Assembly: GCA_035559595.1 (NCBI GenBank)
Contig: DATMBF010000005.1
Coordinates: 100,905 to 164,904, forward strand
Length of the DNA stretch: 64,000 nt
Direction of reading: 5' to 3'
Source: Bacteroidota bacterium
GTDB lineage: Bacteria > Bacteroidota > Ignavibacteria > UBA10030
This document shows, piece after piece, positions 4,760-49,609 of the stretch. A program made the translations under genes and the position numbers. Each line of letters opens with the position of its first letter. Within the stretch, counting starts at the first letter, position 1. The notes under the pieces are model-generated. The model had not been told where the DNA came from and searched no databases. It worked only from the letters and a program-made list of their open reading frames with translations.

Positions 4760-5203
4760 TCAGTGTATCGAGAAGCTGGGCATAAGCGACGTGGCAACGA
4801 GAAAGAATCGGCCGATGACGCAATCGAACATATCGCCATTATCACGCTGCATCTGATAGGTTCCTTCCATCGTTCCCCATTCGGTTTGAAGCGGACAGAA
4901 GCTGTCATACTCGAACGATTCACCGGGCTCAAGGCGCGGAGTCTTACCCACGACACCAGGGCCTTTCACATCCTCCTGTTTTCCATCGGCATCAATGATG
5001 ATCCAATGGCGTGAGAGGAGGCGGGCCGGTTCCGTTCCCTCGTTGGTAATCGTGATGTGGTAGCCGAACACGTAACGATGACTTTGCGGATCGGAATGTT
5101 CGGCAAGATATCGTGCTTCCGCACGGACGCGAATTCCGTGTGTAACCGCTTCGGAGTGGAGTGGTTGTTTCATGGCATTCGTTGGAGTAAGCAGTGGGTT
5201 CAA
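4760..5203 (-). CDS. apaG: ApaG (DUF525) domain protein
   Basis: 'VRAEARYLAEHSDPQSHRYVFGYHITITNEGTEPARLLSRHWIIIDADGKQEDVKGPGVVGKTPRLEPGESFEYDS...PLQTEWGTMEGTYQM' matches the ApaG fold signature (GxGVVG, TPxG). Confidence 0.75.
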   Translation of the reverse strand: MNPLLTPTNAMKQPLHSEAVTHGIRVRAEARYLAEHSDPQSHRYVFGYHITITNEGTEPARLLSRHWIIIDADGKQEDVKGPGVVGKTPRLEPGESFEYDSFCPLQTEWGTMEGTYQMQRDNGDMFDCVIGRFFLVATSLMPSFSIH

Positions 5204-5246
5204 ATATACTGAGGGAATTCCTTAGTTGCACGACTGTCCGGAGAAC

Positions 5247-9582: not shown

Positions 9583-10326
9583 GTGAACTGTTCTGATACG
9601 GTGCAGCTTGCACAAATTATCATGGAGCGCTTCGAGCTCTTCGGCTTCTTGCACATCCTTTTTCTCGCCTCTGTTCCTTGTGCTGCCGGTTTTCTCGTAT
9701 TGCTCTCCAAACACTTCCCACATAGGCAGAAAGTTATTCGGTATCTTCTCGCCGCGTCTCTTGCATTCAACGAGCTCCTTTCTTTCGGCTACAAGATTCA
9801 TCAGGGATGGTTGAGTTTCCCGAATACGCTTCCCCTTCATCTCTGTGATCTCACCATCTGGTTGACAGCATTCAGTCTCGTCTCGTTCAATCGAAGAGCG
9901 TTTGAGCTAGTGTATTACTGGGGACTTGCCGGCACCACCATGGCGATTCTCACCCCCGATCCAAACGCTCTTTCGACATCCGTTGCTACGGTTCAGTTCT
10001 TCCTTTCCCATGGGGGTGTCGTCGCGGCTATTCTTTTTGTCGCCTGGTCCGGCCAACTTCTTCCACGGCCAAACTCTTTCTGGAAAGCTTTTCTGATTCT
10101 TAACGCTTACGCTGCAGTCGTGGGAGTCTTCAACTGGGTGTTCGACACGAATTACTTTTACCTCTGCCGTAAACCCGCGGAGGGGACGTTGCTCGACTAC
10201 CTCGGTCCGTGGCCCTGGTATCTTCTTGCAGGCGAAGTTCTGGCGCTTGGGTTGTTTGTTCTGTTGAGCTTGCCACTCAGGAAGAACAGTAATCTGCTCC
10301 CTCGTAATTCTCAACTTCCCAATTAA
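9583..10326 (+). CDS. Integral membrane protein resembling the TIGR02206 (YwaF-like) family
   Basis: A 247-aa polytopic protein. 'LHLCDLTIW' and 'QFFLSHGGVVAAILFVAW' resemble the conserved core of that family. An alternative start is MERFELF at 9622. Confidence 0.45.
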   Translation: MNCSDTVQLAQIIMERFELFGFLHILFLASVPCAAGFLVLLSKHFPHRQKVIRYLLAASLAFNELLSFGYKIHQGWLSFPNTLPLHLCDLTIWLTAFSLVSFNRRAFELVYYWGLAGTTMAILTPDPNALSTSVATVQFFLSHGGVVAAILFVAWSGQLLPRPNSFWKAFLILNAYAAVVGVFNWVFDTNYFYLCRKPAEGTLLDYLGPWPWYLLAGEVLALGLFVLLSLPLRKNSNLLPRNSQLPN

Positions 10327-10327
10327 T

Positions 10328-10762
10328 CTACACTTTAAACTCAGAACTTGAAACCGTTCGGTTGGAAATCACTGACGCGGTCCGCAACCCTCCGATGACA
10401 TGGCACAAGACTCCTCCCACACTCAGGAATGCAGCCACGAGCGTCAACGGTCTCGTCGGACTCGCCATAGGCGGTTCAACGAAGAAAGCGAGGATGAAGA
10501 GAATCGGGGCAAGGAAGAGAATACGAGAACCGAATGTTTGAAGTTTGTTCCTCCACTTCGTAGAGCTTTCGGTGAGATAGAGTCCAAGACAGAGATTGAG
10601 GAGCCCCGAGAAGAGAATGTACACATGGTTAGCCCGATACAGAAAGCGAATGCTTTCGTTACCGGCATGCAGATCCGGAAATCCCGATCGCATGTAGGCC
10701 CCCGTTGCGAGAAAGACAAGACATGTCAAGAATCCGACGATGAGATGGAGTTTCCTGTGCAT
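10328..10762 (-). CDS. Small 4-TM membrane protein, last gene of the cytochrome operon
   Basis: A 144-aa ORF with four hydrophobic helices. Its start overlaps the stop of the upstream octaheme cytochrome gene. Confidence 0.5.
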   Translation of the reverse strand: MHRKLHLIVGFLTCLVFLATGAYMRSGFPDLHAGNESIRFLYRANHVYILFSGLLNLCLGLYLTESSTKWRNKLQTFGSRILFLAPILFILAFFVEPPMASPTRPLTLVAAFLSVGGVLCHVIGGLRTASVISNRTVSSSEFKV

Positions 10763-35221: not shown

Positions 35222-38200
35222 ATGAACGTTCTTCTTCGTTTTCTTTCTCTTCTGCTTGCAGTCAGTCCGCTTCTCGTTCAACGGTCTTTTTCACAAACAG
35301 GCTTCAAGGGTAAGGATCTTGATCACCCTATCTTCTTGGCACGGGTGAGTCCGAACGATTCGCTTGTCCAGCTTCCCCATCATTTCCTCATCTCTTCGAG
35401 TGTTACCGTCCATCTTGATACGCTAAACCTTGTCGATGGGCAAGACTATTCGCTAAATGCCCGATATGGACAGCTGAGATTACTCGCTGCTTTTAAATCT
35501 CGAATCCAACCTGATTCAACGGTTCAACTGTTGATCCGCTATCGAGCTCTTCCTCTGAACTTCAAGCCGGAATACCGACGCAACGAACTTATGATGCGAG
35601 GCATAGAGGGGGACACGACCTCTCGACGGATTGTGTCGAGCGCGGCAGCCTCTTCGTTCGGCGATTTGTTTGGGCCAAATCTTCAGAAAAGTGGATCGAT
35701 CTTTCGCGGGTTTACGTTTGGGTCGAATCGAGATCTCTCCCTGAGCTCTGGCTTTCGAATGCAATTGAGCGGAAAGCTTTCCGAGGATGTCGAGCTTGTT
35801 GCAGCGTTGACAGATGAGAATTCCCCCATTCAGCCCGAGGGATCGACACAAACTCTTCAGGAGGTCGACAAGGTGTTCGTTGAGCTTCAGCACCCTACCT
35901 ACGGTGCAACGCTTGGTGACTTTATGATCGAGCAAAGCAAGACGGAAGGGGGCGAGTTCGGGAGGTTCGCCAGAAAAGTTCAGGGAGCAAGGGGTGTGGC
36001 TCGCGCATCGTCCCTGGGAAGTGTTCTTGGCGTTGCCTCATTCTCCATTGCCGCAGCGACGAATCGTGGGAAATTTCACAATAATCAGTTTCAGGGAATT
36101 GAGGGTGCGCAGGGTCCATATCGGTTGAGCGGTCGAAACGGCGAGCGTCGCATCATTGTGATTGCAGGCAGCGAGCGCGTGTATCTTAACGGGGAGCTTA
36201 TGACGCGGGGAGAAACGAACGATTACGTCATCGACTATGCCGCTGCCGAAGTTACCTTCAGCAGCAAACGACTCATCACCAACGCTTCACGAATTAGTAT
36301 CGATTTTGAATATTCGGACCGTAACTATACCCGGAACCTCTTTGCTTCGACAACAAGCGTGCAGTCTGAAGACAAATCATTTTCCCTCAATGCTTCAGTT
36401 CTTCAGGAAGCGGATGACCCCGATTCTCCGATTGACGTCGCCCTTGACGAAACCAGCAAGTTCATCCTTCAGCGGAGCGGGGATGATCGGCTGAAGTCAA
36501 GCATCAGCGGTATCCGTTTTGTTGGGAATGACTCAGCCAGCGGCCTCCCCCTTGGTCAATACCTTCTGCAAGACACCGTCATCGCCGGCAGGTCATATTC
36601 CATCTTGGTGTATGCACCGGGGGATCCAGAGGCGCTCTATTCGGCTAATTTCTCGATTGTCGATCGCATGCCGGCCGATTCGGCCGGATACGAGCGCGTT
36701 GGCGTTGGGCACTTTCGCTTTGCGGGAATCGGCAAGGGGAATTACCTCCCGCTTCAATTCATTCCTCTTCCGCAGCGTCACCGGTTTTTGAACCTGAACG
36801 GTGGTGGAGTCGTGATGAAGGGACTTTCGATCAACGCGGAATATGCCGTTAGCGAGTTTGACGCGAATCGCCTCTCGATGCTCGATGCGCAGGATCAAAG
36901 AGGGACGGCCTCGAAAGTGACCGCTCAATACGAGGAAAAAGACGTCAGAATCGGCAGTGCAAATCTCGGTTCGCTTCGTTTTTCGTTCGGGCGTAGATAT
37001 GTCGATCGGCGCTTCGTTGCGCCGGACCGATTCAATGAAGTGGAATTCGGTCGCAAATGGGATGTTGACTTGAGAACAAAAACACACGAGGAGCTGCGGG
37101 AGGCGAGTGTTGCGTACTCACCATTTGCCGCCCTCAGTGTTGATGCAACGTATGGATCGTTCGAGCGACAAGGTGCGGAGCGGTCCACTCGCCTCGAGGC
37201 AGGTGTGAAGGTTGACCGGAGCGATGTGCCCCGGCTTTCGTATCGAGCAGAAAATATTCGTTCAGAGAATCATCTTCAACACACATCTTCTTCCTGGCTG
37301 CGCCAACGGGCTGCGGTGGATTATTCTTACGGTATGTTTGCTCCCGGATTGCGGGCAGAGGCGGAAAATCGGCTGGTCACTTCACGATTTTCGGATTCGG
37401 CGCTGGCCGGCAGTTTCAAGATTCTTGAGATAGCGCCCCGAATGGCAATAACGCAATGGGGACCCATGAATGCTTCCGTGGAATTTCAGATTCGCTCTGA
37501 GGACAGTGCCTCAGGCGGCCGCGTTCAAAGAGCCCTCGAATCGTTTTCTCAGCTTTACTCCTGGCAGCTCCGTGAGTGGAATTCTCTTTCCAGTCATCTT
37601 AATCTCAGTATCCGCACCGTTCGGTTCTCTGATGCATTCATAGCACGTGGCAATACCAATTCTGAAGTCATCCTTGTGAGGTCACTCTCGCGCTACATCC
37701 CCCTTCAGCGTGCTGTGGAGGCTGAAATCTTCTATGAGTTTTCCAGCCAGCGTTCGGCGCACCTTGAGCGTGTGTTCGTGCGTGTGCCGAGAGGAAGCGG
37801 AAACTATCGCTATCTTGGCGATCGTAATAATAACGGGATTGCAGATGAGGAGGAGTTTGAGTTGACCAGATTTGATGGGGACTACATTGTCGTTATGGTC
37901 CCAAGTGATCAATTATTCCCGATTGTAGAGCTCAAAGCAAGTTCGCGGTTGCGACTTTATGGAGAGCGTCTCGTGGGGGGGAACGGTCTCCTTGCGTCGA
38001 TTGCGCGGAGCCTTTCAACGGAAACGTATCTCCGCGTAGACGAAAGAAGCAATGAATCCGACACAAAACAAATCTATTTGCTCAACCTCAGCAGATTCCA
38101 GAATCCGGCAACAACCATCTCCGGTTCAAATCTGATCCAGCAAGATTTGCATGTTTTCGAGAACAAACCGGATCTCTCCTTTCGGTTCCGGTTCCAGCAA

Positions 38201-38779
38201 CGGAAAGGACTCGTTCAGCTTCTTTCTGTGACGGAACAAAACTCCATGCGTGAGCGGTCAGTTCGCATTCGGAGTCAGCTTGTCCGCGAGATTGGGAATA
38301 CCACGGAATTCGTGAATAAAACTGACCGCGTGGTGGCATCAGGGACAAGTCTACGCGAACGTGACATCTTTTCAAACGCATTGAGCTCGGACTTTTCGTA
38401 TCGACCGTTTGCACAATGGGAGATCGGCTTTCGTTTTGATGTGTCGGAGATTGAGGATCGATGGCCAGGTGTTGAGGCGAAGGCCGCAATTAATGAGCAG
38501 AGTGTCAGGGTAGTCTATGCAGTGTTCGGCCTTGGACAATTCAGGATAGAAGGGGAGAGGGAGGAGGTGATAGTGTTACAGGGATCGTCATCGACGAATC
38601 GACCGTTTGTCTTTGAGTTCACCGGCGGGAGAGTGATCGGGAAGACTTTGCTTTGGCAGGTTGCTTTTGATTATAGAATTGGTCAAAATGTACAGGTCAC
38701 CCTGCAATACAACGGTCGAACGGAAGGCGGGAGATCACCTCTTCACTTTGCTCGGGCCGAAGCAAGAGCATTTTTCTAA
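35222..38779 (+). CDS. Large (1185 aa) predicted outer-membrane beta-barrel protein, uncharacterised
   Basis: Signal peptide MNVLLRFLSLLLAVSPLLVQRSFSQ, beta-strand-like alternating patterns over its length, and a C-terminal aromatic residue (...RAEARAFF) typical of OMP beta-barrel signature. No family assigned. Confidence 0.55.
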   Translation: MNVLLRFLSLLLAVSPLLVQRSFSQTGFKGKDLDHPIFLARVSPNDSLVQLPHHFLISSSVTVHLDTLNLVDGQDYSLNARYGQLRLLAAFKSRIQPDSTVQLLIRYRALPLNFKPEYRRNELMMRGIEGDTTSRRIVSSAAASSFGDLFGPNLQKSGSIFRGFTFGSNRDLSLSSGFRMQLSGKLSEDVELVAALTDENSPIQPEGSTQTLQEVDKVFVELQHPTYGATLGDFMIEQSKTEGGEFGRFARKVQGARGVARASSLGSVLGVASFSIAAATNRGKFHNNQFQGIEGAQGPYRLSGRNGERRIIVIAGSERVYLNGELMTRGETNDYVIDYAAAEVTFSSKRLITNASRISIDFEYSDRNYTRNLFASTTSVQSEDKSFSLNASVLQEADDPDSPIDVALDETSKFILQRSGDDRLKSSISGIRFVGNDSASGLPLGQYLLQDTVIAGRSYSILVYAPGDPEALYSANFSIVDRMPADSAGYERVGVGHFRFAGIGKGNYLPLQFIPLPQRHRFLNLNGGGVVMKGLSINAEYAVSEFDANRLSMLDAQDQRGTASKVTAQYEEKDVRIGSANLGSLRFSFGRRYVDRRFVAPDRFNEVEFGRKWDVDLRTKTHEELREASVAYSPFAALSVDATYGSFERQGAERSTRLEAGVKVDRSDVPRLSYRAENIRSENHLQHTSSSWLRQRAAVDYSYGMFAPGLRAEAENRLVTSRFSDSALAGSFKILEIAPRMAITQWGPMNASVEFQIRSEDSASGGRVQRALESFSQLYSWQLREWNSLSSHLNLSIRTVRFSDAFIARGNTNSEVILVRSLSRYIPLQRAVEAEIFYEFSSQRSAHLERVFVRVPRGSGNYRYLGDRNNNGIADEEEFELTRFDGDYIVVMVPSDQLFPIVELKASSRLRLYGERLVGGNGLLASIARSLSTETYLRVDERSNESDTKQIYLLNLSRFQNPATTISGSNLIQQDLHVFENKPDLSFRFRFQQRKGLVQLLSVTEQNSMRERSVRIRSQLVREIGNTTEFVNKTDRVVASGTSLRERDIFSNALSSDFSYRPFAQWEIGFRFDVSEIEDRWPGVEAKAAINEQSVRVVYAVFGLGQFRIEGEREEVIVLQGSSSTNRPFVFEFTGGRVIGKTLLWQVAFDYRIGQNVQVTLQYNGRTEGGRSPLHFARAEARAFF

Positions 38780-38802
38780 ATCATTCGTACGGAGGAACGC
38801 TG

Positions 38803-39210
38803 ATGCAAAGAAGGAATCTTCTCATGCTGATGATGGTTTTTGTGATTGGCGGAATTGGATGTGATCAGCTTGTTAATGAATACACCATAGACGAGGCAGT
38901 GTATGCGCGGGTTACCACGTTTGAGGCAGTATCTGACTCCTCTGCACAATCTTCGATAGGGTTAAGGATTTCAGGATCGCTTGGCAACACGACCGCCTAT
39001 TCGCTCGAAGCCATTCAATGGGAACGAGTGGACACGCTCTTTCGCGTTGCTGTCGTCGCACGGCATCGCGAGAACAGCAATGGGCAATATACACCAAAGG
39101 ATATTCGGCTGGATACCGTGATGATCTTCCAATCACCGAAGCTTGGATGGCACTACTTTCTCCTTCATCCACTCAACGGAGGGACTCGCGACTCGACGTT
39201 TGTGCGTTAG
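38803..39210 (+). CDS. Small lipoprotein downstream of the giant OMP
   Basis: N-terminus MQRRNLLMLMMVFVIGGIGCDQ (lipobox GC). The 135-aa protein starts 21 nt after the OMP stop. Confidence 0.45.
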   Translation: MQRRNLLMLMMVFVIGGIGCDQLVNEYTIDEAVYARVTTFEAVSDSSAQSSIGLRISGSLGNTTAYSLEAIQWERVDTLFRVAVVARHRENSNGQYTPKDIRLDTVMIFQSPKLGWHYFLLHPLNGGTRDSTFVR

Positions 39211-39366: not shown

Positions 39367-41595
39367 ATGAAACTTCTTCAAGACCTCAATCCCGTCCAGC
39401 AGGAGGCGGTCAAGGCTGCAAACGGTCCCGTCATGATTGTCGCGGGAGCCGGAAGCGGCAAGACGCGCGTTCTCACCTACCGCATTGCCTACCTCGTGGC
39501 GTGCGGCGTTCCACCATATCAAATTCTTGCTCTCACGTTCACAAACAAAGCTGCAGATGAGATGAAGAGCCGCATCATCAAGCTCGTCGGCGATCAGGCC
39601 AGCCAGCTCTGGATGGGAACGTTCCATTCAATGTTTGCACGGGTGTTGCGCAAAGAAGCTGAAAAGATCGGCTACACCAGGACATTCTCTATTTATGATT
39701 CGGATGATTCGCTCGCTCTGGTCCGGCGGTGTATGGAGGAGCTGGGAATCTCCGCCCAACTCATCCAGCCAACCGTAATTCGATCCAGAATCAGTGCCGC
39801 AAAAAACCAGCTCATCGACCCGAAGACTTATGAGTCCATGGTGCGCGATATGGTTGACGAGAAAACAGGACAAGTGTACTACAAGTACGATGAGCGACTT
39901 CGAAAATCGAACGCCATGGATTTTGACGATCTGCTGATCAGACCGATCGAGCTGTTCGAAAAGCATCCGAATGTGCTCGAGAAATACCAAGAGCGCTTCA
40001 AATTTGTTCTTGTGGACGAGTTTCAGGATACGAACCGGGCCCAATATCAAATGACAAAACTCCTGGGGGCTCGCTATAAGAATATCTGCGTTGTGGGGGA
40101 TGATGCACAGAGCATTTACTCATTCCGTGGGGCGGATATCCGGAATATCCTCGACTTCGCAAAGGATTATCCCGAATGTCAGACGTTTCGGTTGGAGCAG
40201 AACTACCGCTCGACAAAAAGTATCCTCAAAGCTGCAGGGCAGTTAATAAAAAACAACGTTGAGCAAATCCCAAAGAATCTTTGGACTCAAAACTCGGAAG
40301 GAGATCCGATCGTCTTGTTTGAATGTGCAGATGACCGGGAGGAGGGTCTCCGGATCACGCAGTTTATTCAGGAAGAGATTCACAGAAACAAGCGGAATCT
40401 TCGGGACTTTGCGGCTCTCTACCGGACCAACTCTCAATCGCGTTCGCTTGAAGATGCGTTCAGGCGTGCGGCCATCCCTTATGTGATTGTCGGTGGCATC
40501 CGGTTCTATGAACGAAAGGAAATCAAAGACGTTCTCGCATATTTGCGTCTGCTGGTGAACCCTCAGGACGAGGAAAGCCTTCTACGGGTAATTAACTATC
40601 CGGTGAGAGGAATAGGGGAGACCACCATACAACGATTGCGCGAATTCGCGGTGGTCAAGAATCTCTCCCTCACTCAAGCATTGGCAAAGATCGACGAGAT
40701 CCCTGAAATTGGCGAACGAATGCGAACCGGCGTGAAATCCTTTTCTAATCTGATTACCAAGTACAGTGCCCTTCGGCAGAAGATGTCCCTCAGCGAGCTG
40801 ACTCGCGCCCTTGTCGATGAGCTGGGGATTCTCAAGGAGTTCAAAGAAGAGGGAACCATCGAGGCGATGAATCGGTGGGAAAACGTTCAGGAACTGCTCT
40901 CGGCGATTACAGAGTTCTCCGACGAACGTCCTGAGGCGGGGTTGGAGGATTTTCTCCAGGAGGTCTCCCTTGTTTCGGATATCGACACGTGGGAGGGGAG
41001 TCGAAATGCCGTAACACTCATGACACTTCATGCCTCAAAAGGCTTGGAGTTCCCTGTTGTGTTCGTTGCCGGATTGGAGGAGGGACTGCTGCCGTTTTAT
41101 TCAAATACGATCGACAGACAGGATTTGGAAGAAGAGAGACGGCTCTTTTATGTTGGAATGACAAGGGCGCAAGTGCGGCTCGTGCTGAGCTATGCCCGCG
41201 TTCGCTATCGGTTTGGTGATTTGACCTATACAACGGCATCGCGCTTTTTGTCCGAGATTGGGCCTGAGTCCCTCGAAGGACATGCTGCCGCGCGTGAGAT
41301 GCCTGTTGCGAGCAGAACTTTTGGGCACCGAAATGGGAGAGGTCGCACCTCTAACCGGAATCGTTCTCTGGCCGATACCGAAAGTTATTTTGAAGATGCC
41401 ACGCCCAACTACGAATCCGAGGCTCAAGAGACCCTGGAGGTCAAAAAGGGCCAACTGGTACTCCACGAGACATTTGGGCGTGGCAAGGTGATTGAAGTGA
41501 GGGGAAAAGGGGATTTGCGAAAAGCAACCGTCCAGTTCGATGACTATGGCCTGAAGAACCTCATTCTCAAGTTTGCCAATCTCAAGAAGGTCTGA
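39367..41595 (+). CDS. uvrD: ATP-dependent DNA helicase UvrD/PcrA
   Basis: Walker A 'AGAGSGKT', 'VLVDEFQDTN', 'TLHASKGLEFPVVF' and the 'LFYVGMTRA' helicase motifs. The protein is 742 aa. Confidence 0.85.
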   Translation: MKLLQDLNPVQQEAVKAANGPVMIVAGAGSGKTRVLTYRIAYLVACGVPPYQILALTFTNKAADEMKSRIIKLVGDQASQLWMGTFHSMFARVLRKEAEKIGYTRTFSIYDSDDSLALVRRCMEELGISAQLIQPTVIRSRISAAKNQLIDPKTYESMVRDMVDEKTGQVYYKYDERLRKSNAMDFDDLLIRPIELFEKHPNVLEKYQERFKFVLVDEFQDTNRAQYQMTKLLGARYKNICVVGDDAQSIYSFRGADIRNILDFAKDYPECQTFRLEQNYRSTKSILKAAGQLIKNNVEQIPKNLWTQNSEGDPIVLFECADDREEGLRITQFIQEEIHRNKRNLRDFAALYRTNSQSRSLEDAFRRAAIPYVIVGGIRFYERKEIKDVLAYLRLLVNPQDEESLLRVINYPVRGIGETTIQRLREFAVVKNLSLTQALAKIDEIPEIGERMRTGVKSFSNLITKYSALRQKMSLSELTRALVDELGILKEFKEEGTIEAMNRWENVQELLSAITEFSDERPEAGLEDFLQEVSLVSDIDTWEGSRNAVTLMTLHASKGLEFPVVFVAGLEEGLLPFYSNTIDRQDLEEERRLFYVGMTRAQVRLVLSYARVRYRFGDLTYTTASRFLSEIGPESLEGHAAAREMPVASRTFGHRNGRGRTSNRNRSLADTESYFEDATPNYESEAQETLEVKKGQLVLHETFGRGKVIEVRGKGDLRKATVQFDDYGLKNLILKFANLKKV

Positions 41596-42030
41596 CTAAG
41601 GCTGCTTGCTTGAACTGACGAGAACGATGTTTCCCCAGTAGTCTGGATGAATGTAGTGGGTGATCAGACTGTTGAATTCAGGAACTCGGGAGGAAGGGAG
41701 GATAATGTAGAGAACTGCTTGAGAGCGATTGGATGAGTGAAATTGGTCGAGGAAGACGTTGTATTGTGTGAGCGCGTGCTCTGTTTCTAAGTCTGCCACC
41801 CCGGTTTTTGCCTCCCCTATAACGTATCGCTTGCGAACAGGGTCAAAAGCATAGATGTCCGGTGCTTTATCCTCCTGATCCCCGTAGCCATCATTGTGCA
41901 ACGGTTCGGGTTGCGGTAGACCCTCCAATCCCTCAACGGCCAGGATCTTGAAATTCTCTTGCTTGAAAATTTCAAGAAGCTCGATAACCAACGCATGATG
42001 TTTTTCCAGATCCTCCTGAGGACGCGCCAT
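41596..42030 (-). CDS. Hypothetical 144-aa protein translationally coupled to bshA
   Basis: Its start lies 3 nt after the bshA stop. 'DIYAFDP...YVIGEAKT' resembles a D...(E/D)xK nuclease-like core, but family assignment is uncertain. Its stop abuts the uvrD stop on the opposite strand. Confidence 0.4.
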   Translation of the reverse strand: MARPQEDLEKHHALVIELLEIFKQENFKILAVEGLEGLPQPEPLHNDGYGDQEDKAPDIYAFDPVRKRYVIGEAKTGVADLETEHALTQYNVFLDQFHSSNRSQAVLYIILPSSRVPEFNSLITHYIHPDYWGNIVLVSSSKQP

Positions 42031-42033
42031 TGC

Positions 42034-43170
42034 TTATTTCACAGCTACTTCCGATCCGTAGAGAATTCTCTCGTAGTGCCGCTCATACATCTTCACGATT
42101 TTCGAAGACTCGAATTGCATTGCCCGTGACCGGGCGGCTTTGGCAAACATCTGTTGCTTTGATGGGTTCGCAAGGAGATCGATTGCGTACCGTGCCATCC
42201 GATCGATGTCCCCGATCTCGGCAATATAACCGCACTCGCCATGAACAACGAGCTCGGGCAAACCGCCGACGCTTGAAGAGACAACCGGCACTTCGCATGC
42301 CATCGCTTCTAACGCAGAGAGGCCAAAACTCTCGGATTGGCTTGGCAGCAGGAAGAGATCGGCTGCCGAGAGGAGATCCACAATTTCCGTTTGCTTTCCG
42401 AGGAACTTCACAAGATGCTGAATACCGAGCTCGCGGCAGAGATGTTCACAGGCCGATCGGTCGGGACCATCACCGATCAGGAGCAGTTTCGACTTGATCT
42501 GTTTTTGGACAATGTCAAAAATTCTGATCACATCCTGCACACGTTTGACGGGACGGAAGTTTGACGTGTGGACGAGGATCTTCTCACTATTTGGCGCACA
42601 AATCTTTCGGACTTCCTCGGAAGGAATTCTACGGTATTTTGTCGTATCGATGAAGTTCGGAATCACTTCGATCTCTTTTTCGATCCCGTAGTTTGTTAAG
42701 GTTTTCTCCTTCAGGAATCGTGAAACGGCGGTAACGCCATCACTCTGTTCTATACTGAATTTCATCACCGGGAGAAAACTCGGCTCCAGTCCGACCAGGG
42801 TGATGTCTGTCCCATGAAGAGTCGTAATAACTTTCGCATTCGTCGGCGAGAGCATCTGCTTTGCGAGGTAAGCGCTTGTTGCGTGAGGGATGGCATAATG
42901 GCAATGAAAGAGATCGATCTTTTCGTAACGTGCAACTTCAACCATCTTGCTGGCAAGGGCGAGCGTGTAAAGAGGGAACTCAAAGAGCGGATAGCTTGTC
43001 ATTTCGACTTCATGGTAGGTAATATTCCCCTTGAAGCCAGTGAGCCGGATAGGCATGGCGTAGGTAATGAAATGGATGGAATGGCCGCGCTCTGCGAGAG
43101 CTTTACCTAGCTCGGTGGCCACCACGCCGCTCCCTCCGTACGTGGGATAACATGTAATCCCGATGTTCAT
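42034..43170 (-). CDS. bshA: N-acetyl-alpha-D-glucosaminyl L-malate synthase (bacillithiol biosynthesis glycosyltransferase, GT4)
   Basis: The N-terminus 'MNIGITCYPTYGGSGVVATELGKALAERGHSIHFIT' and 'HCHYAIPHATSAYLAKQML...TTLHGTDITLVG' closely parallel B. subtilis BshA ([39 protein letters not shown]...). Confidence 0.85.
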   Translation of the reverse strand: MNIGITCYPTYGGSGVVATELGKALAERGHSIHFITYAMPIRLTGFKGNITYHEVEMTSYPLFEFPLYTLALASKMVEVARYEKIDLFHCHYAIPHATSAYLAKQMLSPTNAKVITTLHGTDITLVGLEPSFLPVMKFSIEQSDGVTAVSRFLKEKTLTNYGIEKEIEVIPNFIDTTKYRRIPSEEVRKICAPNSEKILVHTSNFRPVKRVQDVIRIFDIVQKQIKSKLLLIGDGPDRSACEHLCRELGIQHLVKFLGKQTEIVDLLSAADLFLLPSQSESFGLSALEAMACEVPVVSSSVGGLPELVVHGECGYIAEIGDIDRMARYAIDLLANPSKQQMFAKAARSRAMQFESSKIVKMYERHYERILYGSEVAVK

Positions 43171-43467
43171 TGTGCAGAATTCCTCACGAGTATGTTAAAG
43201 AGAATTGGGTGGAGATACAAGCAAACGGCCGAAACTCTAACGCTAAAAAGAACTTACACTGAAAAGAAGTGTGCGCTATCTCGTTTGACGATATGATAAC
43301 ATGGATTGAACGACGTTCAGTTCAGAAAAGAAGTGGGAATTATTCCTATTTTTCCCGCTTGATTTAAGGAGTAAGAAAAGTTATATTGAGAGTGTCTGAA
43401 ATGATCATCAAGCGCCTAATTGCTTGATTTTTTAATACGCATATATTGGACTGAAGAAGTCGGATTT

Positions 43468-43872
43468 ATGTTGCAGCTTTCGAAACGTGTCGAATACGGT
43501 CTGATAGCACTTCGCCATATGGCGATGCATCCAATGGGAAAGGTCTTCACGGCCAAGGAACTGGCTCGGGAGTATGATATTCCCTATGAGCTCCTTGCCA
43601 AGGTGCTTCAGAAGTTATCACGTGCGCGTGTGGTCAATTCTCTGCACGGCGTGAAAGGCGGATACGCGCTCGCCCGAAATCCGTCAGACCTTACCATATC
43701 GCAGATCATTCGAATCATCGATGAAGAGAAACCGATGGTTGCGGAATGTTATGTTGACGGTCCGGATAGCTGTTATCTATTCGGCAATTGTACGATACGG
43801 CGCCCTCTTGGAAAGTTGCAGCGCAGCTTGAATGTGGTTTTTGATAGAATGACAGTTCAGGAAATCATTTGA
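43468..43872 (+). CDS. Rrf2 family transcriptional regulator (IscR/SufR-like, Fe-S sensing)
   Basis: 'MLQLSKRVEYGLIALRHMA' is the Rrf2 wHTH N-terminus. Three clustered Cys (CYVDGPDSCYLFGNC) form an IscR-type cluster ligand set. It sits directly upstream of the suf operon. The ORF track start at 43420 is a TTG start. Confidence 0.75.
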   Translation: MLQLSKRVEYGLIALRHMAMHPMGKVFTAKELAREYDIPYELLAKVLQKLSRARVVNSLHGVKGGYALARNPSDLTISQIIRIIDEEKPMVAECYVDGPDSCYLFGNCTIRRPLGKLQRSLNVVFDRMTVQEII

Positions 43873-43890
43873 CCATTTGATGGAATCTCT

Positions 43891-44268
43891 ATGAGCGACC
43901 TCTTGAAACTTTTTACCGACAAGCGAAAGGAATTTCTCAACTTCCTTAAGTCGCGATATCACCTCTATCACCTCTCTAATGTATTCTTCCGTGACATGCA
44001 TTATGGCGTCATGGCCTTTCTGGCGATGAACGGCACGAAAGTGAAATACACTCAGGCAGAGGAACTGACAAAAAAGGTGATCGAATCTCTTGAGCAGGCG
44101 AACATTTTAGTGAAGGCCGATCGGCTGGCATGGGTGTTAACCTATCCTGACTTTAAGAAGCCACCCGTGAAACCTGCTGCTCCGGCAAAACCCTCAACGC
44201 CGGCGAAGCCGGCAGCTGCTCCGGCGAAACCACAGCCTACATCGGAAGCAACGCCTGCTTCTGCATAG
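43891..44268 (+). CDS. Hypothetical protein between the regulator and sufB, with a Pro/Ala/Lys-rich (PAKP-repeat) C-terminal tail
   Basis: A 125-aa ORF in the same orientation, tightly packed between the Rrf2 gene and sufB. The tail reads 'KKPPVKPAAPAKPSTPAKPAAAPAKPQPT'. No family recognised. Confidence 0.45.
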   Translation: MSDLLKLFTDKRKEFLNFLKSRYHLYHLSNVFFRDMHYGVMAFLAMNGTKVKYTQAEELTKKVIESLEQANILVKADRLAWVLTYPDFKKPPVKPAAPAKPSTPAKPAAAPAKPQPTSEATPASA

Positions 44269-44298
44269 CGACATGAAGTCTTTACACAGGGTAAGATC

Positions 44299-45756
44299 AT
44301 GAGCACTGAGACCAACACTGTTGAACAATTAGCAATTCAAGAGTACAAGTACGGATTCGAAACCGCGGTCGAGTATGATGTCGTTCCGAAGGGGCTGAAT
44401 GAAGACATCATCAAGCTCATATGGGAGAAGAAGGGCGAACCCGACTGGATGCTCGAGTGGCGGCTGAAGGCCTTCCGTCATTGGGAGAAACTCTACAAGG
44501 ACGGAAAGGAACCCAAGTGGGCCAACATCAAATATGGCCCGATCGACTACCAGAGTATTCGCTACTACTCAGCACCGAAGAAGAGACCGAAACTCAATAG
44601 TCTCGATGAGGTAGACCCCGAGATCCGCAAGACGTTCGAGAAGCTTGGGATTCCGCTCGAGGAGCAAAAGCTCCTTGCCGGAGTTGCCGTCGACGCTGTC
44701 TTTGACAGTGTCTCCGTTGCAACTACGTTCAAGGCAAAACTGGAGGAGCTTGGTATCATTTTCTGTTCGATGACCGAAGCAATTCGCAATCATCCCGATC
44801 TCGTCAAGAAGTACCTTGGCTCGGTTGTTCCGTACTCCGACAACTTCTTCGCAGCCTTGAATTCCGCAGTCTTTAGTGACGGCTCGTTTGCATACATCCC
44901 CAAAGGTGTGCACTGCCCGATGGAGCTCTCAACGTACTTTCGCATCAACGCACGAGAGACAGGCCAGTTCGAGCGAACGCTCATTGTCGCCGACGAAGGC
45001 GCTTCCGTGAGCTACCTTGAAGGATGCACCGCTCCAATGCGTGATGAGAATCAGCTCCATGCAGCGGTTGTTGAGCTCGTTGCCCTCGATAATGCCACCA
45101 TTAAGTATTCAACGATCCAGAACTGGTATCCGGGGGACAAAGAGGGTCGTGGGGGGATCTATAACTTCGTGACCAAGCGAGGAAAAGCGCTCGGCAGGAA
45201 TTCGAAGATCACCTGGACACAGGTGGAGACCGGCGCCGCCATTACGTGGAAATACCCAAGCTGTTTGCTGATCGGCGAGAATTCCGTCGGCGAGTTTTAT
45301 TCCGTTGCGGTAACAAACAACTACCAGCAGGCAGATACAGGGACAAAGATGATTCACATCGGGAAGAACACACGGAGCACTATCGTTTCAAAAGGGATTT
45401 CTGCTGGATTCGGTCAAAACTCGTATCGCGGCCTTGTTCGTATTCAGAAAAGTGCGACTGGAGCGAGGAATTTCTCTCAGTGTGATTCATTGCTGATCGG
45501 AGATAAATGCGGTGCTCACACCTTCCCCTACATGGAGGTGCAGAACACCACTTCGAGCATTGAGCACGAGGCAACGACATCAAAGATCGGCGAGGATCAG
45601 ATTTTCTACTGCAAACAGCGCGGACTCTCAACAGAAGATGCAGTGAACATGATTGTCAACGGCTTCTGCAAAGAGGTCTTTCGCGAACTGCCGATGGAGT
45701 TTGCTGTCGAAGCGCAAAAACTTCTCAGTATTAGTCTGGAAGGCAGTGTCGGGTAA
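44299..45756 (+). CDS. sufB: Fe-S cluster assembly protein SufB
   Basis: A 485-aa protein. '[33 protein letters not shown]' is the SufB core, and the C-terminal 'IVNGF' region is present. Confidence 0.9.
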
Positions 45757-45789
45757 ACACTCAGGAACACATTCAACAAAGGAAAAGCA

Positions 45790-46548
45790 ATGCTGGAAAT
45801 CATAAATCTGCACGCTGGAATAGACGGAAAAGAAATTCTTAAGGGAATCGACCTTAAGGTGGGGAAAGGTGAAGTTCACGCCATTATGGGTCCGAACGGA
45901 TCGGGCAAAAGCACGCTCGCTCAAGTTCTTGCGGGACGAGACTCGTACGAGGTTACCGAAGGGAGCGTCATTTATGAGGGAAAAGATCTCCTCGAGCTCG
46001 ACCCGGAAGAGAGAGCTCGGGCGGGTGTGTTTATGGCGTTCCAGTATCCGGTCGAAATCCCGGGCGTGAGCAATACGTATTTCCTCAAGTCTGCACTGAA
46101 CGCAATCAGAAAACATCGTGGCCAGGAGGAGCTTGATGCGGTTGAGTTCCTTTCTCTGGTGAAACAACGAGCCAAGATGGTTGATATGGATGAAGAGCTT
46201 TTGAGCCGGCCGGTGAACCACGGCTTTTCTGGCGGCGAGAAGAAGCGAAACGAGATTTTTCAAATGGCGGTTCTGGAGCCTAAGCTCGCGATTTTGGACG
46301 AAACGGATTCCGGACTGGATATTGATGCCCTTCGGACCGTCGCTGCAGGCGTGAACAAGCTTCGGTCAAAAGACAACGCCGTGATCGTTGTGACACACTA
46401 TCAGCGGTTGCTGAACTACATCATCCCCGATTACGTCCACGTACTGCTTGATGGCCGTATCGTCAGGTCTGGCGGCAAGGAGCTTGCCCTCGAGCTTGAA
46501 CAAAAGGGGTACGATTGGCTTCGGGAGACGGCTGAAGTAACGGCGTAA
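45790..46548 (+). CDS. sufC: Fe-S cluster assembly ATPase SufC
   Basis: Walker A 'GPNGSGKST', the ABC signature 'FSGGEKKR' and Walker B 'LAILDETDSGLD'. Confidence 0.9.
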   Translation: MLEIINLHAGIDGKEILKGIDLKVGKGEVHAIMGPNGSGKSTLAQVLAGRDSYEVTEGSVIYEGKDLLELDPEERARAGVFMAFQYPVEIPGVSNTYFLKSALNAIRKHRGQEELDAVEFLSLVKQRAKMVDMDEELLSRPVNHGFSGGEKKRNEIFQMAVLEPKLAILDETDSGLDIDALRTVAAGVNKLRSKDNAVIVVTHYQRLLNYIIPDYVHVLLDGRIVRSGGKELALELEQKGYDWLRETAEVTA

Positions 46549-46562
46549 GGAGTGGACTGAGA

Positions 46563-47900
46563 ATGTCAACGACAGAAAAGCAAAACTTGTGGTACGTCTC
46601 TAACTTCGAGGCGCTGGAACGAAGTCTTAATGGTGAAGCGGCATCGTACGTGCATGCACTGCGGAAGGCTGCGTTCGACAAGCTTTCACAAACGGGGTTT
46701 CCGACAACGAAAGACGAAGAGTGGAAGTACACAGATGTATCCTCACTTGCGAAGACGGCATTTAAGCCGATTCTCTCTCCCAAAAAACCTTCCCTTGCGA
46801 TTGAACCGTATCTGTTGGGGCATCCTGAATGGAATCGCCTGGTGTTCGTCAATGGTCACTTCTTGATGGAGCTTTCGGATCTCCGCTCGCTTCCGAAGTC
46901 CGTGATCATGGGAAGTCTCGCTGAGGCGATGAAGTCGCACCCAAAGCTGATTGAGGAATATCTCACGGCGTGTTCTCGCTATGAACAAAACGCTTTTACC
47001 GCTTTGAATACGGCTTTTATTCAAGATGGTGCATTTGTCTATGTTCCAAAAGGAACCATCATCGAGCAGCCGCTTCATCTTCTCTTCATTTCTAGTCTGG
47101 AGGAGGGGGAATTCGTCTCTCATCCTCGCAACGTCATCATCGTTGGTGAAAGCAGTCAGGTTGCCATTCTGGAAAGTTACGTGAGCCCCCGAGAGCATCT
47201 CTCGTACTTCACGAATGCCGTAACCGAAATTTCTGTCGGTGAAAATGCGGTGGTGGAGTATGACAAGTTCCAGAATGAGAGCATGGCGGCCTACCACATT
47301 GCCTCGACATACGTGCGACAGCAGAGGAACAGCAATTACGCATCGAATCTCGTGACGTTCGGTGCCAAACTTTCGCGCAATAATGTCTTCGCTGTCCTTG
47401 ATGGTGAAGGAATCGAGTGCACGCTCAATGGCCTCTATCTTGGCACCGCAAACCAGCATATCGACAACCATACCACTATCGATCACGCGAAGCCGCATTG
47501 CAACAGCTTCGAGGTGTACAAGGGAATCCTTGACGGCAAGTCGAAGGGAGTTTTCAACGGAAAAATTATTGTCCGGAAGGATGCGCAAAAGACCGATGCG
47601 AAGCAGACAAACAAGAATCTTGTTCTTTCTGACGAAGCATCGATCGACACGAAGCCGCAATTAGAGATCTTTGCAAACGATGTGAAATGTACTCATGGAG
47701 CCACGATCGGGCAACTTGACCGTGAAGCCATTTTTTATTTGCAGTCCAGGGGCTTGAGCAAGGAAGACGCGCGCGATATGTTAATCCATGCTTTCGCGAA
47801 GGACTTGATCGATCGGATTAAAAGCGAAGGGGTTCGGACCAATCTGGAGCAGCTTATTTATGAGAGGCTCCGGGCCGGGAGAGTCAACACGAGGACGTAA
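46563..47900 (+). CDS. sufD: Fe-S cluster assembly protein SufD
   Basis: A 445-aa SufB/SufD-fold protein with the 'RNVIIVGESSQVAILESY' beta-helix region, positioned between sufC and sufS. Confidence 0.85.
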   Translation: MSTTEKQNLWYVSNFEALERSLNGEAASYVHALRKAAFDKLSQTGFPTTKDEEWKYTDVSSLAKTAFKPILSPKKPSLAIEPYLLGHPEWNRLVFVNGHFLMELSDLRSLPKSVIMGSLAEAMKSHPKLIEEYLTACSRYEQNAFTALNTAFIQDGAFVYVPKGTIIEQPLHLLFISSLEEGEFVSHPRNVIIVGESSQVAILESYVSPREHLSYFTNAVTEISVGENAVVEYDKFQNESMAAYHIASTYVRQQRNSNYASNLVTFGAKLSRNNVFAVLDGEGIECTLNGLYLGTANQHIDNHTTIDHAKPHCNSFEVYKGILDGKSKGVFNGKIIVRKDAQKTDAKQTNKNLVLSDEASIDTKPQLEIFANDVKCTHGATIGQLDREAIFYLQSRGLSKEDARDMLIHAFAKDLIDRIKSEGVRTNLEQLIYERLRAGRVNTRT

Positions 47901-49157
47901 ATGCATCTTGTCCACCCGATAGATACGCGCAAGGAAGAGGTGTTCAATGTGGAGAAGTTCAGGGAAGACTTCCCGATTCTCCAAAGGAAAGTGCACGGCA
48001 AGCCACTCGTCTACCTGGACAATGCGGCAACGACCCAAAAGCCGTATGTCGTGATCTACGCAGTCCAGAATTACTACTTAGAAACGAATTCCAACGTTCA
48101 CCGTGGCGTTCATTACTTGAGTGAGCTTGCAACGTACGAGTACGAAAAGGCGCGAGGAAAGATCAAACTGTTCCTCAACGCCGCAAGCGAGAAGGAGGTT
48201 ATCTTCACGCGGGGGACAACTGAAGGCATCAATCTTGTTGCCTCAAGTTACGGGCGACGGCATGTGAAGAAAGGGGATGAAGTTCTGATTTCCGCCATGG
48301 AACACCACTCGAATATTGTTCCGTGGCAACTTCTTTGCGAAGAGGTGGGTGCCCAGCTCACGGTCGTGCCGATCAATGACCGCGGTGAGCTTATCATTGA
48401 AGAGTATGAACGGCTCTTGAGTCCGAAGACGAAGATCGTCGCGATCACTCATGTGTCAAACTCGCTCGGTACGGTAAACGCGATCAAAGACATCATTCAA
48501 ATGGCACACCAACATGGAGTGCCAGTTCTCGTCGATGGGGCGCAGGCGGTTCAGCACATGAAAGTCGATGTTCGTGATTTGGATTGTGATTTTTATGTTT
48601 TTTCCGGACACAAAGCGTATGGGCCGACGGGAATCGGTGTGCTCTACGGAAAGCTACCGCTCCTCGAGGCAATGCCGCCGTATCAGGGCGGGGGTGACAT
48701 GATCAAGTCTGTGACGTTCGAGAAGACGACGTTCAACGATCTTCCCTACAAATTTGAAGCCGGTACGCCGAATATTGCCGGCGCGATCGGTCTCGGTATG
48801 GCGGTCGAATACCTCAAGTACGTGGGCGTGGAAAACATCGCAGCGTATGAGCACAAGTTGCTGGAGTATGCAACATCGGCCTTGTCGGAAATCAAGAACC
48901 TTCGGTTGATCGGGACTGCGCAGAACAAGACATCGGTTCTCTCGTTTGTCATGGATGGTGTCCACCCCCACGATATCGGAACAATTGTCGACCGTGAAGG
49001 TGTTGCAATACGGACAGGGCATCACTGCGCACAGCCGGTGATGGAGCGATTCGGAGTTCCGGCGACAGCCCGCGCCTCACTTGCTCTGTACAACACACGA
49101 GAGGAGATCGATGCACTTGTGCGCGCTCTGGAGAAAGTGAACGAGGTCTTTGCATAA
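47901..49157 (+). CDS. sufS: Cysteine desulfurase SufS (class V aminotransferase)
   Basis: 'YLDNAATTQKP', the PLP-lysine region 'FSGHKAYGPTGIGVLYG' and the active-site Cys loop 'RTGHHCAQP'. Confidence 0.9.
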   Translation: MHLVHPIDTRKEEVFNVEKFREDFPILQRKVHGKPLVYLDNAATTQKPYVVIYAVQNYYLETNSNVHRGVHYLSELATYEYEKARGKIKLFLNAASEKEVIFTRGTTEGINLVASSYGRRHVKKGDEVLISAMEHHSNIVPWQLLCEEVGAQLTVVPINDRGELIIEEYERLLSPKTKIVAITHVSNSLGTVNAIKDIIQMAHQHGVPVLVDGAQAVQHMKVDVRDLDCDFYVFSGHKAYGPTGIGVLYGKLPLLEAMPPYQGGGDMIKSVTFEKTTFNDLPYKFEAGTPNIAGAIGLGMAVEYLKYVGVENIAAYEHKLLEYATSALSEIKNLRLIGTAQNKTSVLSFVMDGVHPHDIGTIVDREGVAIRTGHHCAQPVMERFGVPATARASLALYNTREEIDALVRALEKVNEVFA

Positions 49158-49609
49158 TGTCGGAGCTCAAAGCGCTGTATCAGGATTTGATTCTGGATCA
49201 TAACAAGAGCCCGCGAAACTTCAGAGTTATCAACGACGCAGACCTGAAGGCCGAAGGCTTCAATCCGCTTTGCGGCGACCGCTACACGGTGTATGTGAAG
49301 ATGGGAAACGGGACGATTCAGGATGTTGCCTTCCACGGCTCAGGATGCGCAATCTCCAAAGCTTCTGCTTCAGTGATGACAACAGCGGTGAAGGGGAAGA
49401 CGAAGGAGGAAGCAGAACAACTGTTCGAGCGATTTCACAAGCTGGTGAAAGGTGAGTTGAACTCTGATGAGGAAATTCCTACCTTAGGAAAGCTTGCGGT
49501 GTTTGCCGGAGTTTCCGAATTCCCGGCGCGCGTCAAGTGTGCAAGTCTGGCATGGCACACGCTTCACGCAGCGCTGCATCAAGAACAAGAACCCGTTTCT
49601 ACTGAGTAG
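49157..49609 (+). CDS. sufU: SufU-type (IscU-like) sulfur acceptor / Fe-S scaffold-like protein
   Basis: 'NPLCGDRYTVYV...AFHGSGCAISKASASVMT' shows the three-Cys pattern with the SufU-type insertion. Confidence 0.8.
   Translation: MSELKALYQDLILDHNKSPRNFRVINDADLKAEGFNPLCGDRYTVYVKMGNGTIQDVAFHGSGCAISKASASVMTTAVKGKTKEEAEQLFERFHKLVKGELNSDEEIPTLGKLAVFAGVSEFPARVKCASLAWHTLHAALHQEQEPVSTE

Follow-up and report, generated by a model that had tools for sequence, protein, structure and literature searches.

We analysed a window of 64,000 nucleotides (the whole stretch of DNA considered here) from a bacterium of the Ignavibacteria lineage of Bacteroidota. A small ORF of 144 codons lies in it between a bacillithiol biosynthesis gene and a helicase gene, and the locus is made up of the following features.

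39367-41595, plus strand: PcrA/UvrD-family SF1 helicase with UvrD-helicase, UvrD_C and PcrA_UvrD_tudor domains, convergent with the ORF
41596-42030, minus strand: 144-aa ORF for a stand-alone protein with the PD-(D/E)xK (restriction-endonuclease) fold, from an unnamed family
41647-41661, minus strand: codons of T124-H-Y-I-H128, a C-terminal motif specific to the subfamily and followed by xxYW
41806-41814, minus strand: codons of E73-A74-K75, the (D/E)xK motif, where strand b3 ends, invariant in loci L001-L053 and in distant branch A3
41857-41862, minus strand: codons of P57-D58, the PD motif just before strand b2, invariant in alignment A1
41875-41895, minus strand: codons of N46-D-G-Y-G-D-Q52, the family-specific loop preceding the PD motif
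42031-42033, minus strand: 3-nt spacer GCA separating the bshA TAA from the ORF ATG
42034-43170, minus strand: bshA (N-acetyl-alpha-D-glucosaminyl L-malate synthase), upstream of and co-oriented with the ORF, with TIGR03999 and GT4 Pfam domains

The ORF starts with the ATG at 42028-42030 and ends with the TAG at 41596-41598. The bshA stop codon is at 42034-42036 and the helicase TGA occupies 41593-41595, contiguous with the ORF stop. Both the start three nucleotides past bshA and the zero gap between the opposing stop codons (41596 and 41595), as given in a preliminary description of this DNA, are borne out by the coordinates; the span 41595-42033 used there is the ORF extended by the final base of the helicase stop at one end and by the spacer at the other. 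No Shine-Dalgarno-like sequence was seen when the region upstream of the ATG was inspected. BshA scores 559 bits against TIGR03999 (cut-off 273.7), and the helicase scores best with the PcrA model (854 bits, compared with 656 bits for the UvrD model), albeit below the equivalog cut-off of both. The bshA gene is transcribed divergently from an rrf2-suf operon for Fe-S assembly, and an Rfam search of the window returned three tRNAs only, none of them near the ORF.

The ORF is a real gene and not a chance reading frame, since it has 306 homologues at E<=1e-3, nearly all of 140-149 aa and 57-70% identical, and a 40-sequence alignment of the family (A1) contains 37 invariant columns. Recent horizontal acquisition was ruled out, as the GC and GC3 of the ORF match those of the neighbouring genes. 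The family is small and unnamed, with just 90 clusters in a set of 1.84 billion representatives, and it is confined to the Ignavibacteria-type lineage of Bacteroidota.

The single-domain protein adopts the core alpha-beta-beta-beta-alpha-beta fold of the PD-(D/E)xK superfamily. It also carries the superfamily's catalytic signature, with P57-D58 as the Asp expected where strand 2 starts and E73-A74-K75 as the (D/E)xK of strand 3; strand b2 covers residues 59-63. Together with the acidic E17 of helix 1 and Q89 of helix 2 the signature is complete in this genome. The stretch 'DIYAFDP...YVIGEAKT', quoted in the preliminary description for its likeness to a restriction-endonuclease-fold D-(D/E)xK motif, is present and holds both elements, and this likeness is upheld by fold and motif alike; the 'small redox or regulatory partner' offered there as an equal alternative finds no support. 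E17, D58, E73 and K75 are kept without exception in all 53 loci of the clade to which the window protein belongs (the window clade), at an overall identity of 51-70%, and D58 is retained in 78 of the 80 genome loci. The QxxxY motif of RecB/Cas4-type nucleases is partly present as Q89-x-x-x-F93, with Tyr at the last position in a minority of members.

At the level of sequence libraries, the window protein has no match in Pfam and NCBIfam at E<=1, in PADLOC, or among PDB sequences searched with the single sequence and with a profile, and PHROGs returned one match at E 0.13. Foldseek against the PDB gave nothing below E 0.001, and its top matches were again restriction-endonuclease-fold proteins. 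Because no sequence library recognises the protein and the structural matches lie above E 0.001, the restriction-endonuclease assignment is at the fold level only. Distant members of the family give sub-threshold Pfam matches to BsuBI_PstI_RE, AHJR-like REase and TnsA-like N, a weak corroboration of the assignment. The family is acidic (median pI ~5.1), which is atypical for small non-specific DNA-binding nucleases and counts against the reading as a nuclease.

The position of the ORF directly behind bshA had suggested co-translation with BshA and a redox or regulatory role in bacillithiol synthesis, in which the protein would regulate or chaperone BshA or would be an enzyme with a bacillithiol-related substrate. 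Its same-strand placement 3 nt after bshA in the window, its co-oriented position immediately 3' of bshA in 42 of the 46 evaluable loci of the window clade, and the redox/Fe-S flavour that the rrf2-suf operon lends to the region are all in line with such a role. The spacing between the two genes, however, ranges from -11 to about 230 nt across relatives, so it is the co-orientation that is conserved and not a stop-start coupling; of the proposed co-translation, the co-oriented placement holds within the clade and the tight coupling does not. When 80 metagenomic bshA loci were screened with a family HMM, the ORF turned up in 6, where BshA identity is 74-79%. None of the 63 loci with a BshA identity of 54-60% has it, and at least seven of those at 70-79% lack it too; co-occurrence with bshA outside a single lineage was not seen among these metagenomic loci. 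The bshA-linked homologue for which the preliminary description would check other bacillithiol-producing FCB genomes is kept in the window clade and missing from the 63 distant loci. In a close relative (L092), bshA is directly convergent with pcrA without the ORF; in a sister clade an Rce1-like gene of opposite orientation lies between bshA and the ORF; and in the most divergent members bshA is not nearby. The protein has no Pfam or NCBIfam match to bacillithiol or thiol-redox families (BshB, BshC, bacilliredoxins), no Cys motif and indeed zero cysteines in its translation; the idea of a redox partner was rejected for this lack of Cys. Its fold and relatives also point to nucleic-acid enzymes rather than to thiol chemistry, and literature searches brought up no small protein linked to bshA in Ignavibacteria. 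Considering the 63 distant loci and L092, all without the ORF, and the lack of Cys, the bacillithiol link is positional only, and we regard an accessory function in bacillithiol synthesis as very improbable. Co-transcription of the ORF with bshA is likely, and would reflect a gene order specific to the lineage and not bacillithiol chemistry.

The opposite flank is the more persistent one. The ORF lies tail-to-tail with pcrA in 47 of 49 loci of the window clade and 14 of 27 loci of the sister clade, and this adjacency survives where the direct adjacency to bshA is broken. The gap between the two genes is exactly 0 in 14 of 68 measurable related loci, with overlap in 3 more, and the genes lie within 13 nt of each other or overlap in 42 of the 68. 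Gaps of <=1 nt are also found in two of the five convergent gene pairs of the window, and the zero-gap junction is therefore real yet common in both the genome and the ORF family. A search of the junction for a terminator-like hairpin or inverted repeat found none. The preliminary description had raised possible transcriptional interference between the two transcripts; junctions just as tight are, however, common in this genome and in the ORF family. The persistent adjacency and the short gaps, together with the position of distant homologues 6 nt upstream of an SNF2 helicase, would be expected if the protein were a functional partner of the PcrA/UvrD helicase in a helicase-nuclease pair for repair or recombination. 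Yet the two genes are convergent, which makes co-transcription impossible, L092 keeps the bshA/pcrA junction without the ORF, and divergent members lie beside other genes, such as those for an SLT-LysM lipoprotein or an NHL-repeat protein. Moreover, the same loci share the general synteny suf-rrf2...bshA...pcrA, and the adjacency to pcrA may be merely inherited. A partnership with the helicase, drawn by analogy, thus seems quite unlikely.

Distant branches of the family sit in defence or mobile cassettes. Branch A3, which aligns with the ORF family at an hhalign probability of 99.7% (E 4e-26), has invariant E3, H7, P-D, E-A-K, D and Q. Its members lie upstream of an SNF2 helicase that resembles the ZorD/DpdE helicase module, and the cassette also encodes a ParB_N-like protein, a DndB/DpdB-like protein, a GHKL-type ATPase and an N6/N4 methyltransferase. 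PADLOC gave only partial matches for this cassette, to ZorD, DpdE, HmaA and DpdB, and no named system with the DndB/GHKL/ParB_N/SNF2 combination was found in the literature. An intermediate branch adjoins S24 repressor-like genes, plus either HTH_17 and two methyltransferases or Dcm-HNH-Vsr.

Two motifs are particular to the ORF family. In the NDGYGDQ loop, which is absent from branch A3, N46, G48, Y/F49 and G50 are retained across the 80 loci apart from two that have G48R, and in the C-terminal motif, which is missing from the distant branches, T124, H125, Y126 and H128 are invariant in 80 of 80 loci, residue 127 being I, L or V. Four long repeat proteins (P0142, P0149, P0166 and P0176) gave many matches to the family profile over positions 80-137 and were rejected as repeat-amplified chance similarity ('ITHLVSRGLW' compared with 'ITHYIHRDYW'). 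In the sister clade (L054-L080, 27 of the 80 species-level loci), E73 is replaced by L, I or V and K75 sometimes by R, V or I, while D58, D63, D95, the NxG[YF]G loop and THYIHxxYW are retained almost unchanged. Because this clade loses E73 yet keeps the other motifs, the function conserved across the subfamily may be independent of the classical site.

Several readings of the protein were weighed against these data. With moderate confidence, we favour a single-domain PD-(D/E)xK protein, likely a nuclease, that is an offshoot of defence-cassette subunits and whose placement beside bshA is a matter of lineage gene order. Its most likely activity would be divalent-metal-dependent cleavage of a nucleic-acid phosphodiester bond, proposed because the full catalytic signature is intact in this genome, and the substrate would presumably be DNA. 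The loss of E73 in the sister clade could instead mean that the family is a non-catalytic restriction-endonuclease-fold module with a binding, scaffolding or regulatory role, or that it is an enzyme with a remodelled site of Asp and His residues (D58, D63, D95, H125 and H128) together with the NDGYGDQ loop, the ExK of the window clade being a relic. We find this rather doubtful, since the conservation of the four classical residues in 53 of 53 window-clade loci indicates selection on the classical site, which the outgroups keep too. Catalytic acidic residues are known to relocate within the PD-(D/E)xK superfamily, and the loss of E73 alone is therefore no proof of inactivity.

Within the favoured reading of a predicted nuclease, the family would have branched off from small nuclease subunits of mobile cassettes of the defence or restriction-modification type and would now be chromosomal and inherited vertically, domestication being the step that we infer. 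A further elaboration, unlikely in our estimate, is that the domesticated subunit became a vertically inherited core gene in which a new surface (NDGYGDQ and THYIHxxYW) is conserved above the catalytic Glu and forms a new Asp/His site or a partner interface. If this were true, a possible partner would be the adjacent PcrA/UvrD helicase, and the two would form a helicase-nuclease repair pair not recognised before.

The ORF represents a new family within a known superfamily and is probably a nuclease. The analysis provides a fold and a probable, predicted activity for a conserved 'hypothetical protein' family of ~300 sequences without a Pfam, NCBIfam or PADLOC model, and removes a tempting yet unsupported link to bacillithiol biosynthesis. 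It also offers a concise illustration of how a nuclease module of mobile defence systems appears to have become fixed, presumably by domestication, in a housekeeping neighbourhood. With a sub-clade that has lost the catalytic Glu and kept the new motifs, the family is a usable test case for repurposing of the restriction-endonuclease fold. The find is a modest one and opens no long-standing question.

Among known systems, the likeness to MmcB-like proteins (Pfam MmcB-like/DUF1052; Caulobacter MmcB) is at the fold level only, with 11-15% identity in the structural superpositions; PDB 3dnx (SPO1766) is probably a member of the MmcB-like family. The window protein has no Pfam match at E<=1, no MmcB-like match was obtained among 51 family members at E<=10, and the NDGYGDQ and THYIHxxYW motifs are specific to the ORF family. 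NucS/EndoMS, whose C-terminal nuclease domain is represented by PDB 2vld, has ~250 aa in two domains, the N-terminal one serving DNA binding and dimerisation, whereas the window protein corresponds to the nuclease-like domain alone and has no Pfam or NCBIfam NucS match. Unlike Cas4 and AddB among the RecB/Cas4-type nucleases, it cannot hold a four-Cys Fe-S cluster. XisH-like proteins (PDB 2okf, FdxN element excision controlling factor) differ in that the window protein has no Pfam XisH match and its gene has neither an XisI partner nor an excision element nearby. In contrast to type II restriction-modification systems, the gene adjoins bshA and the pcrA/uvrD helicase gene instead of a methyltransferase gene, which only the distant branches have. 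The nuclease modules of type IIS and nicking enzymes (N.BspD6I, SdaI, FokI) and of defence helicase-nucleases (ZorD, HamA) are among the closest comparisons. However, the window gene is accompanied by neither a methyltransferase nor a helicase operon partner nor defence-island genes, and is negative in PADLOC; unlike these defence modules, it lies in a housekeeping neighbourhood and is conserved by vertical descent.

The 144-aa ORF between bshA and the PcrA/UvrD-family helicase gene is a real gene of a small, lineage-restricted family. With slightly better than even confidence, we read its product as a stand-alone metal-dependent PD-(D/E)xK nuclease, whose ancestor would have been a nuclease subunit of defence cassettes; the gene would have become fixed between bshA and pcrA in the Ignavibacteria-type lineage and would be co-transcribed with bshA by position only. 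The three genes are arranged as follows.

39367-41595, plus strand: SF1 helicase, 742 aa, with UvrD-helicase, UvrD_C and PcrA/UvrD tudor domains; TGA at 41593-41595
41596-42030, minus strand: the ORF, 144 aa, with ATG at 42028-42030 and TAG stop at 41596-41598 by direct sequence reading
42034-43170, minus strand: bshA, upstream of the ORF (NCBIfam equivalog TIGR03999, 559 bits versus a cut-off of 273.7)

Direct reading of the region bore out every positional statement of the preliminary description: the bshA TAA (42034-42036) is followed by GCA and the ORF ATG, placing the start 3 nt past the bshA stop, and the ORF and helicase stop codons are contiguous, the helicase TGA ending at 41595 and the ORF TAG occupying 41596-41598. 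PcrA is the best-scoring model for the helicase, yet neither its equivalog cut-off nor that of UvrD is reached. GC and GC3 of the ORF are like those of neighbouring genes. A search of 5.8 billion proteins returned 306 homologs, nearly all 140-149 aa and 57-70% identical, all annotated 'hypothetical', and with all named sources being Ignavibacteria, Ignavibacteriales or Bacteroidota MAGs. The family is narrow: scanning all of 1.84 billion cluster representatives with its HMM gave just 90 clusters; a 40-sequence family alignment has 37 invariant columns. The ORF protein had no match in Pfam, NCBIfam, PADLOC, PHROGs or PDB sequences.

The AlphaFold2 model from the family alignment is confident (pLDDT 92, pTM 0.88), and its element order, a1(5-24), b1(28-32), b2(59-63), b3(68-74), a2(84-94), b4(106-111), a3(113-126) and b5(135-139), predicts the alpha-beta-beta-beta-alpha-beta core of the restriction-endonuclease fold. 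In this model, P57-D58 stands directly ahead of strand b2, strand b3 is closed by E73-A74-K75, helix a1 carries E17, and helix a2 carries Q89 along with F/Y93. Residues placed as E17, P57-D58, E73-A74-K75 and Q89 are here form the textbook pattern of PD-(D/E)xK nucleases. Foldseek against PDB found nothing significant, though the best matches were of the same kind (restriction-endonuclease fold), and against viral models MmcB-like DNA repair proteins ranked top (TM 0.52-0.56). Distant family members gave weak, sub-threshold Pfam matches to BsuBI_PstI_RE, AHJR-like REase and TnsA-like N. Taken together, model topology, motif placement, top Foldseek matches and weak Pfam matches show that the earlier guess of a restriction-endonuclease fold was right at the superfamily level, albeit at no finer one. 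The ORF family is a new one within a known superfamily.

Across the 80 species-level loci of the window-type family, N46, G48, Y/F49, G50, D58, D63, G72, D95, P112, T124-H-Y-I-H128, Y131 and W132 (almost) never change. Two features, the NDGYGDQ loop and a THYIHxxYW motif, are missing from the distant branch A3 and are innovations of the window-type subfamily. The family is acidic (median pI ~5.1). In the sister clade (L054-L080), E73 is replaced by L, I or V in 27/27 loci, and some also have R, V or I in place of K75. What is conserved subfamily-wide therefore differs from the classical site; it may be a second site or an interface with a partner. This pattern would also fit a non-catalytic or remodelled-site protein of the same fold, the weightiest of three rivals but an unlikely one; against it, the classical site is intact in 53/53 loci of the window's clade (L001-L053) and, being kept in all of them, apparently under selection.

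The other two rivals concern the neighbours, for which BshA, helicase and suf genes were placed by tblastn in the 80 species-level genomes. In the window's clade, the ORF directly follows a co-oriented bshA in 42/46 evaluable loci, with a spacing of -11 to ~230 nt (mostly 5-55 nt). Thus, of the proposed coupling to bshA, the co-orientation is conserved but not the 3-nt stop-start arrangement. In no sister-clade locus is bshA directly upstream of the ORF; in 13/24 the two are separated by a gene for an Rce1-like (CPBP) membrane protein that runs in the opposite direction, so that the ORF must have its own promoter there. In L054-L070, which lack E73, the inserted gene codes for an Rce1-like/CPBP intramembrane protease of 251 aa (in L065, for example, at 5180-5935 on the minus strand). 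The helicase is adjacent and convergent in 47/49 loci of the window's clade and still adjacent in 14/27 of the sister clade, whose most divergent members have neither neighbour and instead converge on a gene for an SLT-LysM lipoprotein or an NHL-repeat protein. That the ORF encodes a partner nuclease of PcrA/UvrD seems improbable; rrf2-orf125-sufB on the far side of bshA is kept in the same loci, so local gene order in general is inherited in this lineage. Least probable, with only a slight chance, is a bacillithiol accessory. In a reverse test, the family HMM found the ORF in 6/80 metagenomic bshA loci, all with 74-79% BshA identity, and in 0/63 with 54-60%. It is also missing from at least seven loci at 70-79% that have sufficient downstream sequence. 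Because the ORF is missing from most bshA loci and its translation contains no cysteine, the results do not support a specific function of the protein in making bacillithiol or in thiol redox chemistry, nor the suggestion of a small redox or regulatory partner. The close relative L092 (4300-4460; BshA 79% identical) lacks the ORF: its bshA and pcrA converge directly, their ends ~30 nt apart, which represents either clean loss of the gene or the ancestral condition.

Divergent from bshA, rrf2, a 125-aa protein gene (no significant Pfam match) and sufB-sufC-sufD-sufS-sufU(NifU_N) occupy 43420-49609 (plus strand), an order kept in most related genomes. BSH reportedly has a role in Fe-S metabolism, which this placement beside an Fe-S assembly operon and an Rrf2 regulator may reflect.

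The zero-gap convergent arrangement is real and recurrent. Among 68 loci with a measurable distance between the ORF and helicase stops, that distance is 0 in 14 and negative in 3; counting overlaps, it does not exceed 13 nt in 42. Gaps of ≤1 nt occur in 2/5 convergent pairs of the 64-kb window, the second being at 10326-10328 (ORFs 9583-10326, plus, and 10328-10762, minus; 1-nt gap). Abutting convergent stops are thus a habit of this genome, and the junction looks like ordinary genome compaction in this lineage. A search of 41450-41750 found no terminator-like hairpin or inverted repeat, and Rfam gave no match at the junction. Upstream of the helicase (35222-39210, plus strand) lie genes for a 1185-aa secreted-looking protein and a 135-aa lipoprotein-like protein, neither with a Pfam match at E≤0.001.

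The profile search also brought up two more distant branches. Branch A3 proteins are 136-145 aa long, with E3, H7, P-D, G-E-A-K, D and Q invariant. They are homologs of the window family by hhalign (probability 99.7%, E 4e-26), and on long contigs their genes lie in an identical cassette every time.

Divergently transcribed arm: GHKL-type ATPase (HATPase_c_3), 541-aa protein, DndB/DpdB-like protein
Other arm, in order: ~338-aa protein (ParB_N-like in one member), small REase-fold protein, SNF2 helicase (starting 6 nt downstream of the REase-fold gene), 336-aa protein

An N6/N4 DNA methyltransferase is often nearby. In L085 (1-10411), L088, L089 and L091, where the REase-fold protein is 136-141 aa, this apparently unnamed conserved defence-type cassette gave only partial PADLOC matches. 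The intermediate branch (P0137, P0138, P0152) shares an NDG-x-GD loop with the window family. Its genes adjoin one for an S24 (LexA/CI-like) peptidase and are either followed by genes for HTH_17 and two N6_N4 methyltransferases or found close to Dcm-HNH-Vsr. The peptidase gene is divergent in L172 (2514-6650), L173, L174 and L175 (4056-5423), and upstream on the same strand in L082. This module is prophage- or R-M-like, and the 140-aa protein could be its endonuclease. From these contexts, the family outside the Ignavibacteria-type lineage acts like the nuclease part of mobile modules of defence or R-M type. Four long repeat proteins (P0142, P0149, P0166, P0176; 446-1332 aa) match profile positions 80-137 six to twelve times each ('ITHLVSRGLW...'); with a repeat unit of ~60 aa, judged from P0142 and P0166, these are probably repeat-amplified chance similarity.

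Among known systems, the top viral-model structural match of the ORF protein is to MmcB-like proteins. MmcB, a PD-(D/E)XK endonuclease, belongs to the SOS regulon in Caulobacter (PMC9578287). The A3-cassette SNF2 helicase matches ZorD ('SNF2 helicase, Mrr-like nuclease') and DpdE, a likeness limited to the helicase portion of each.
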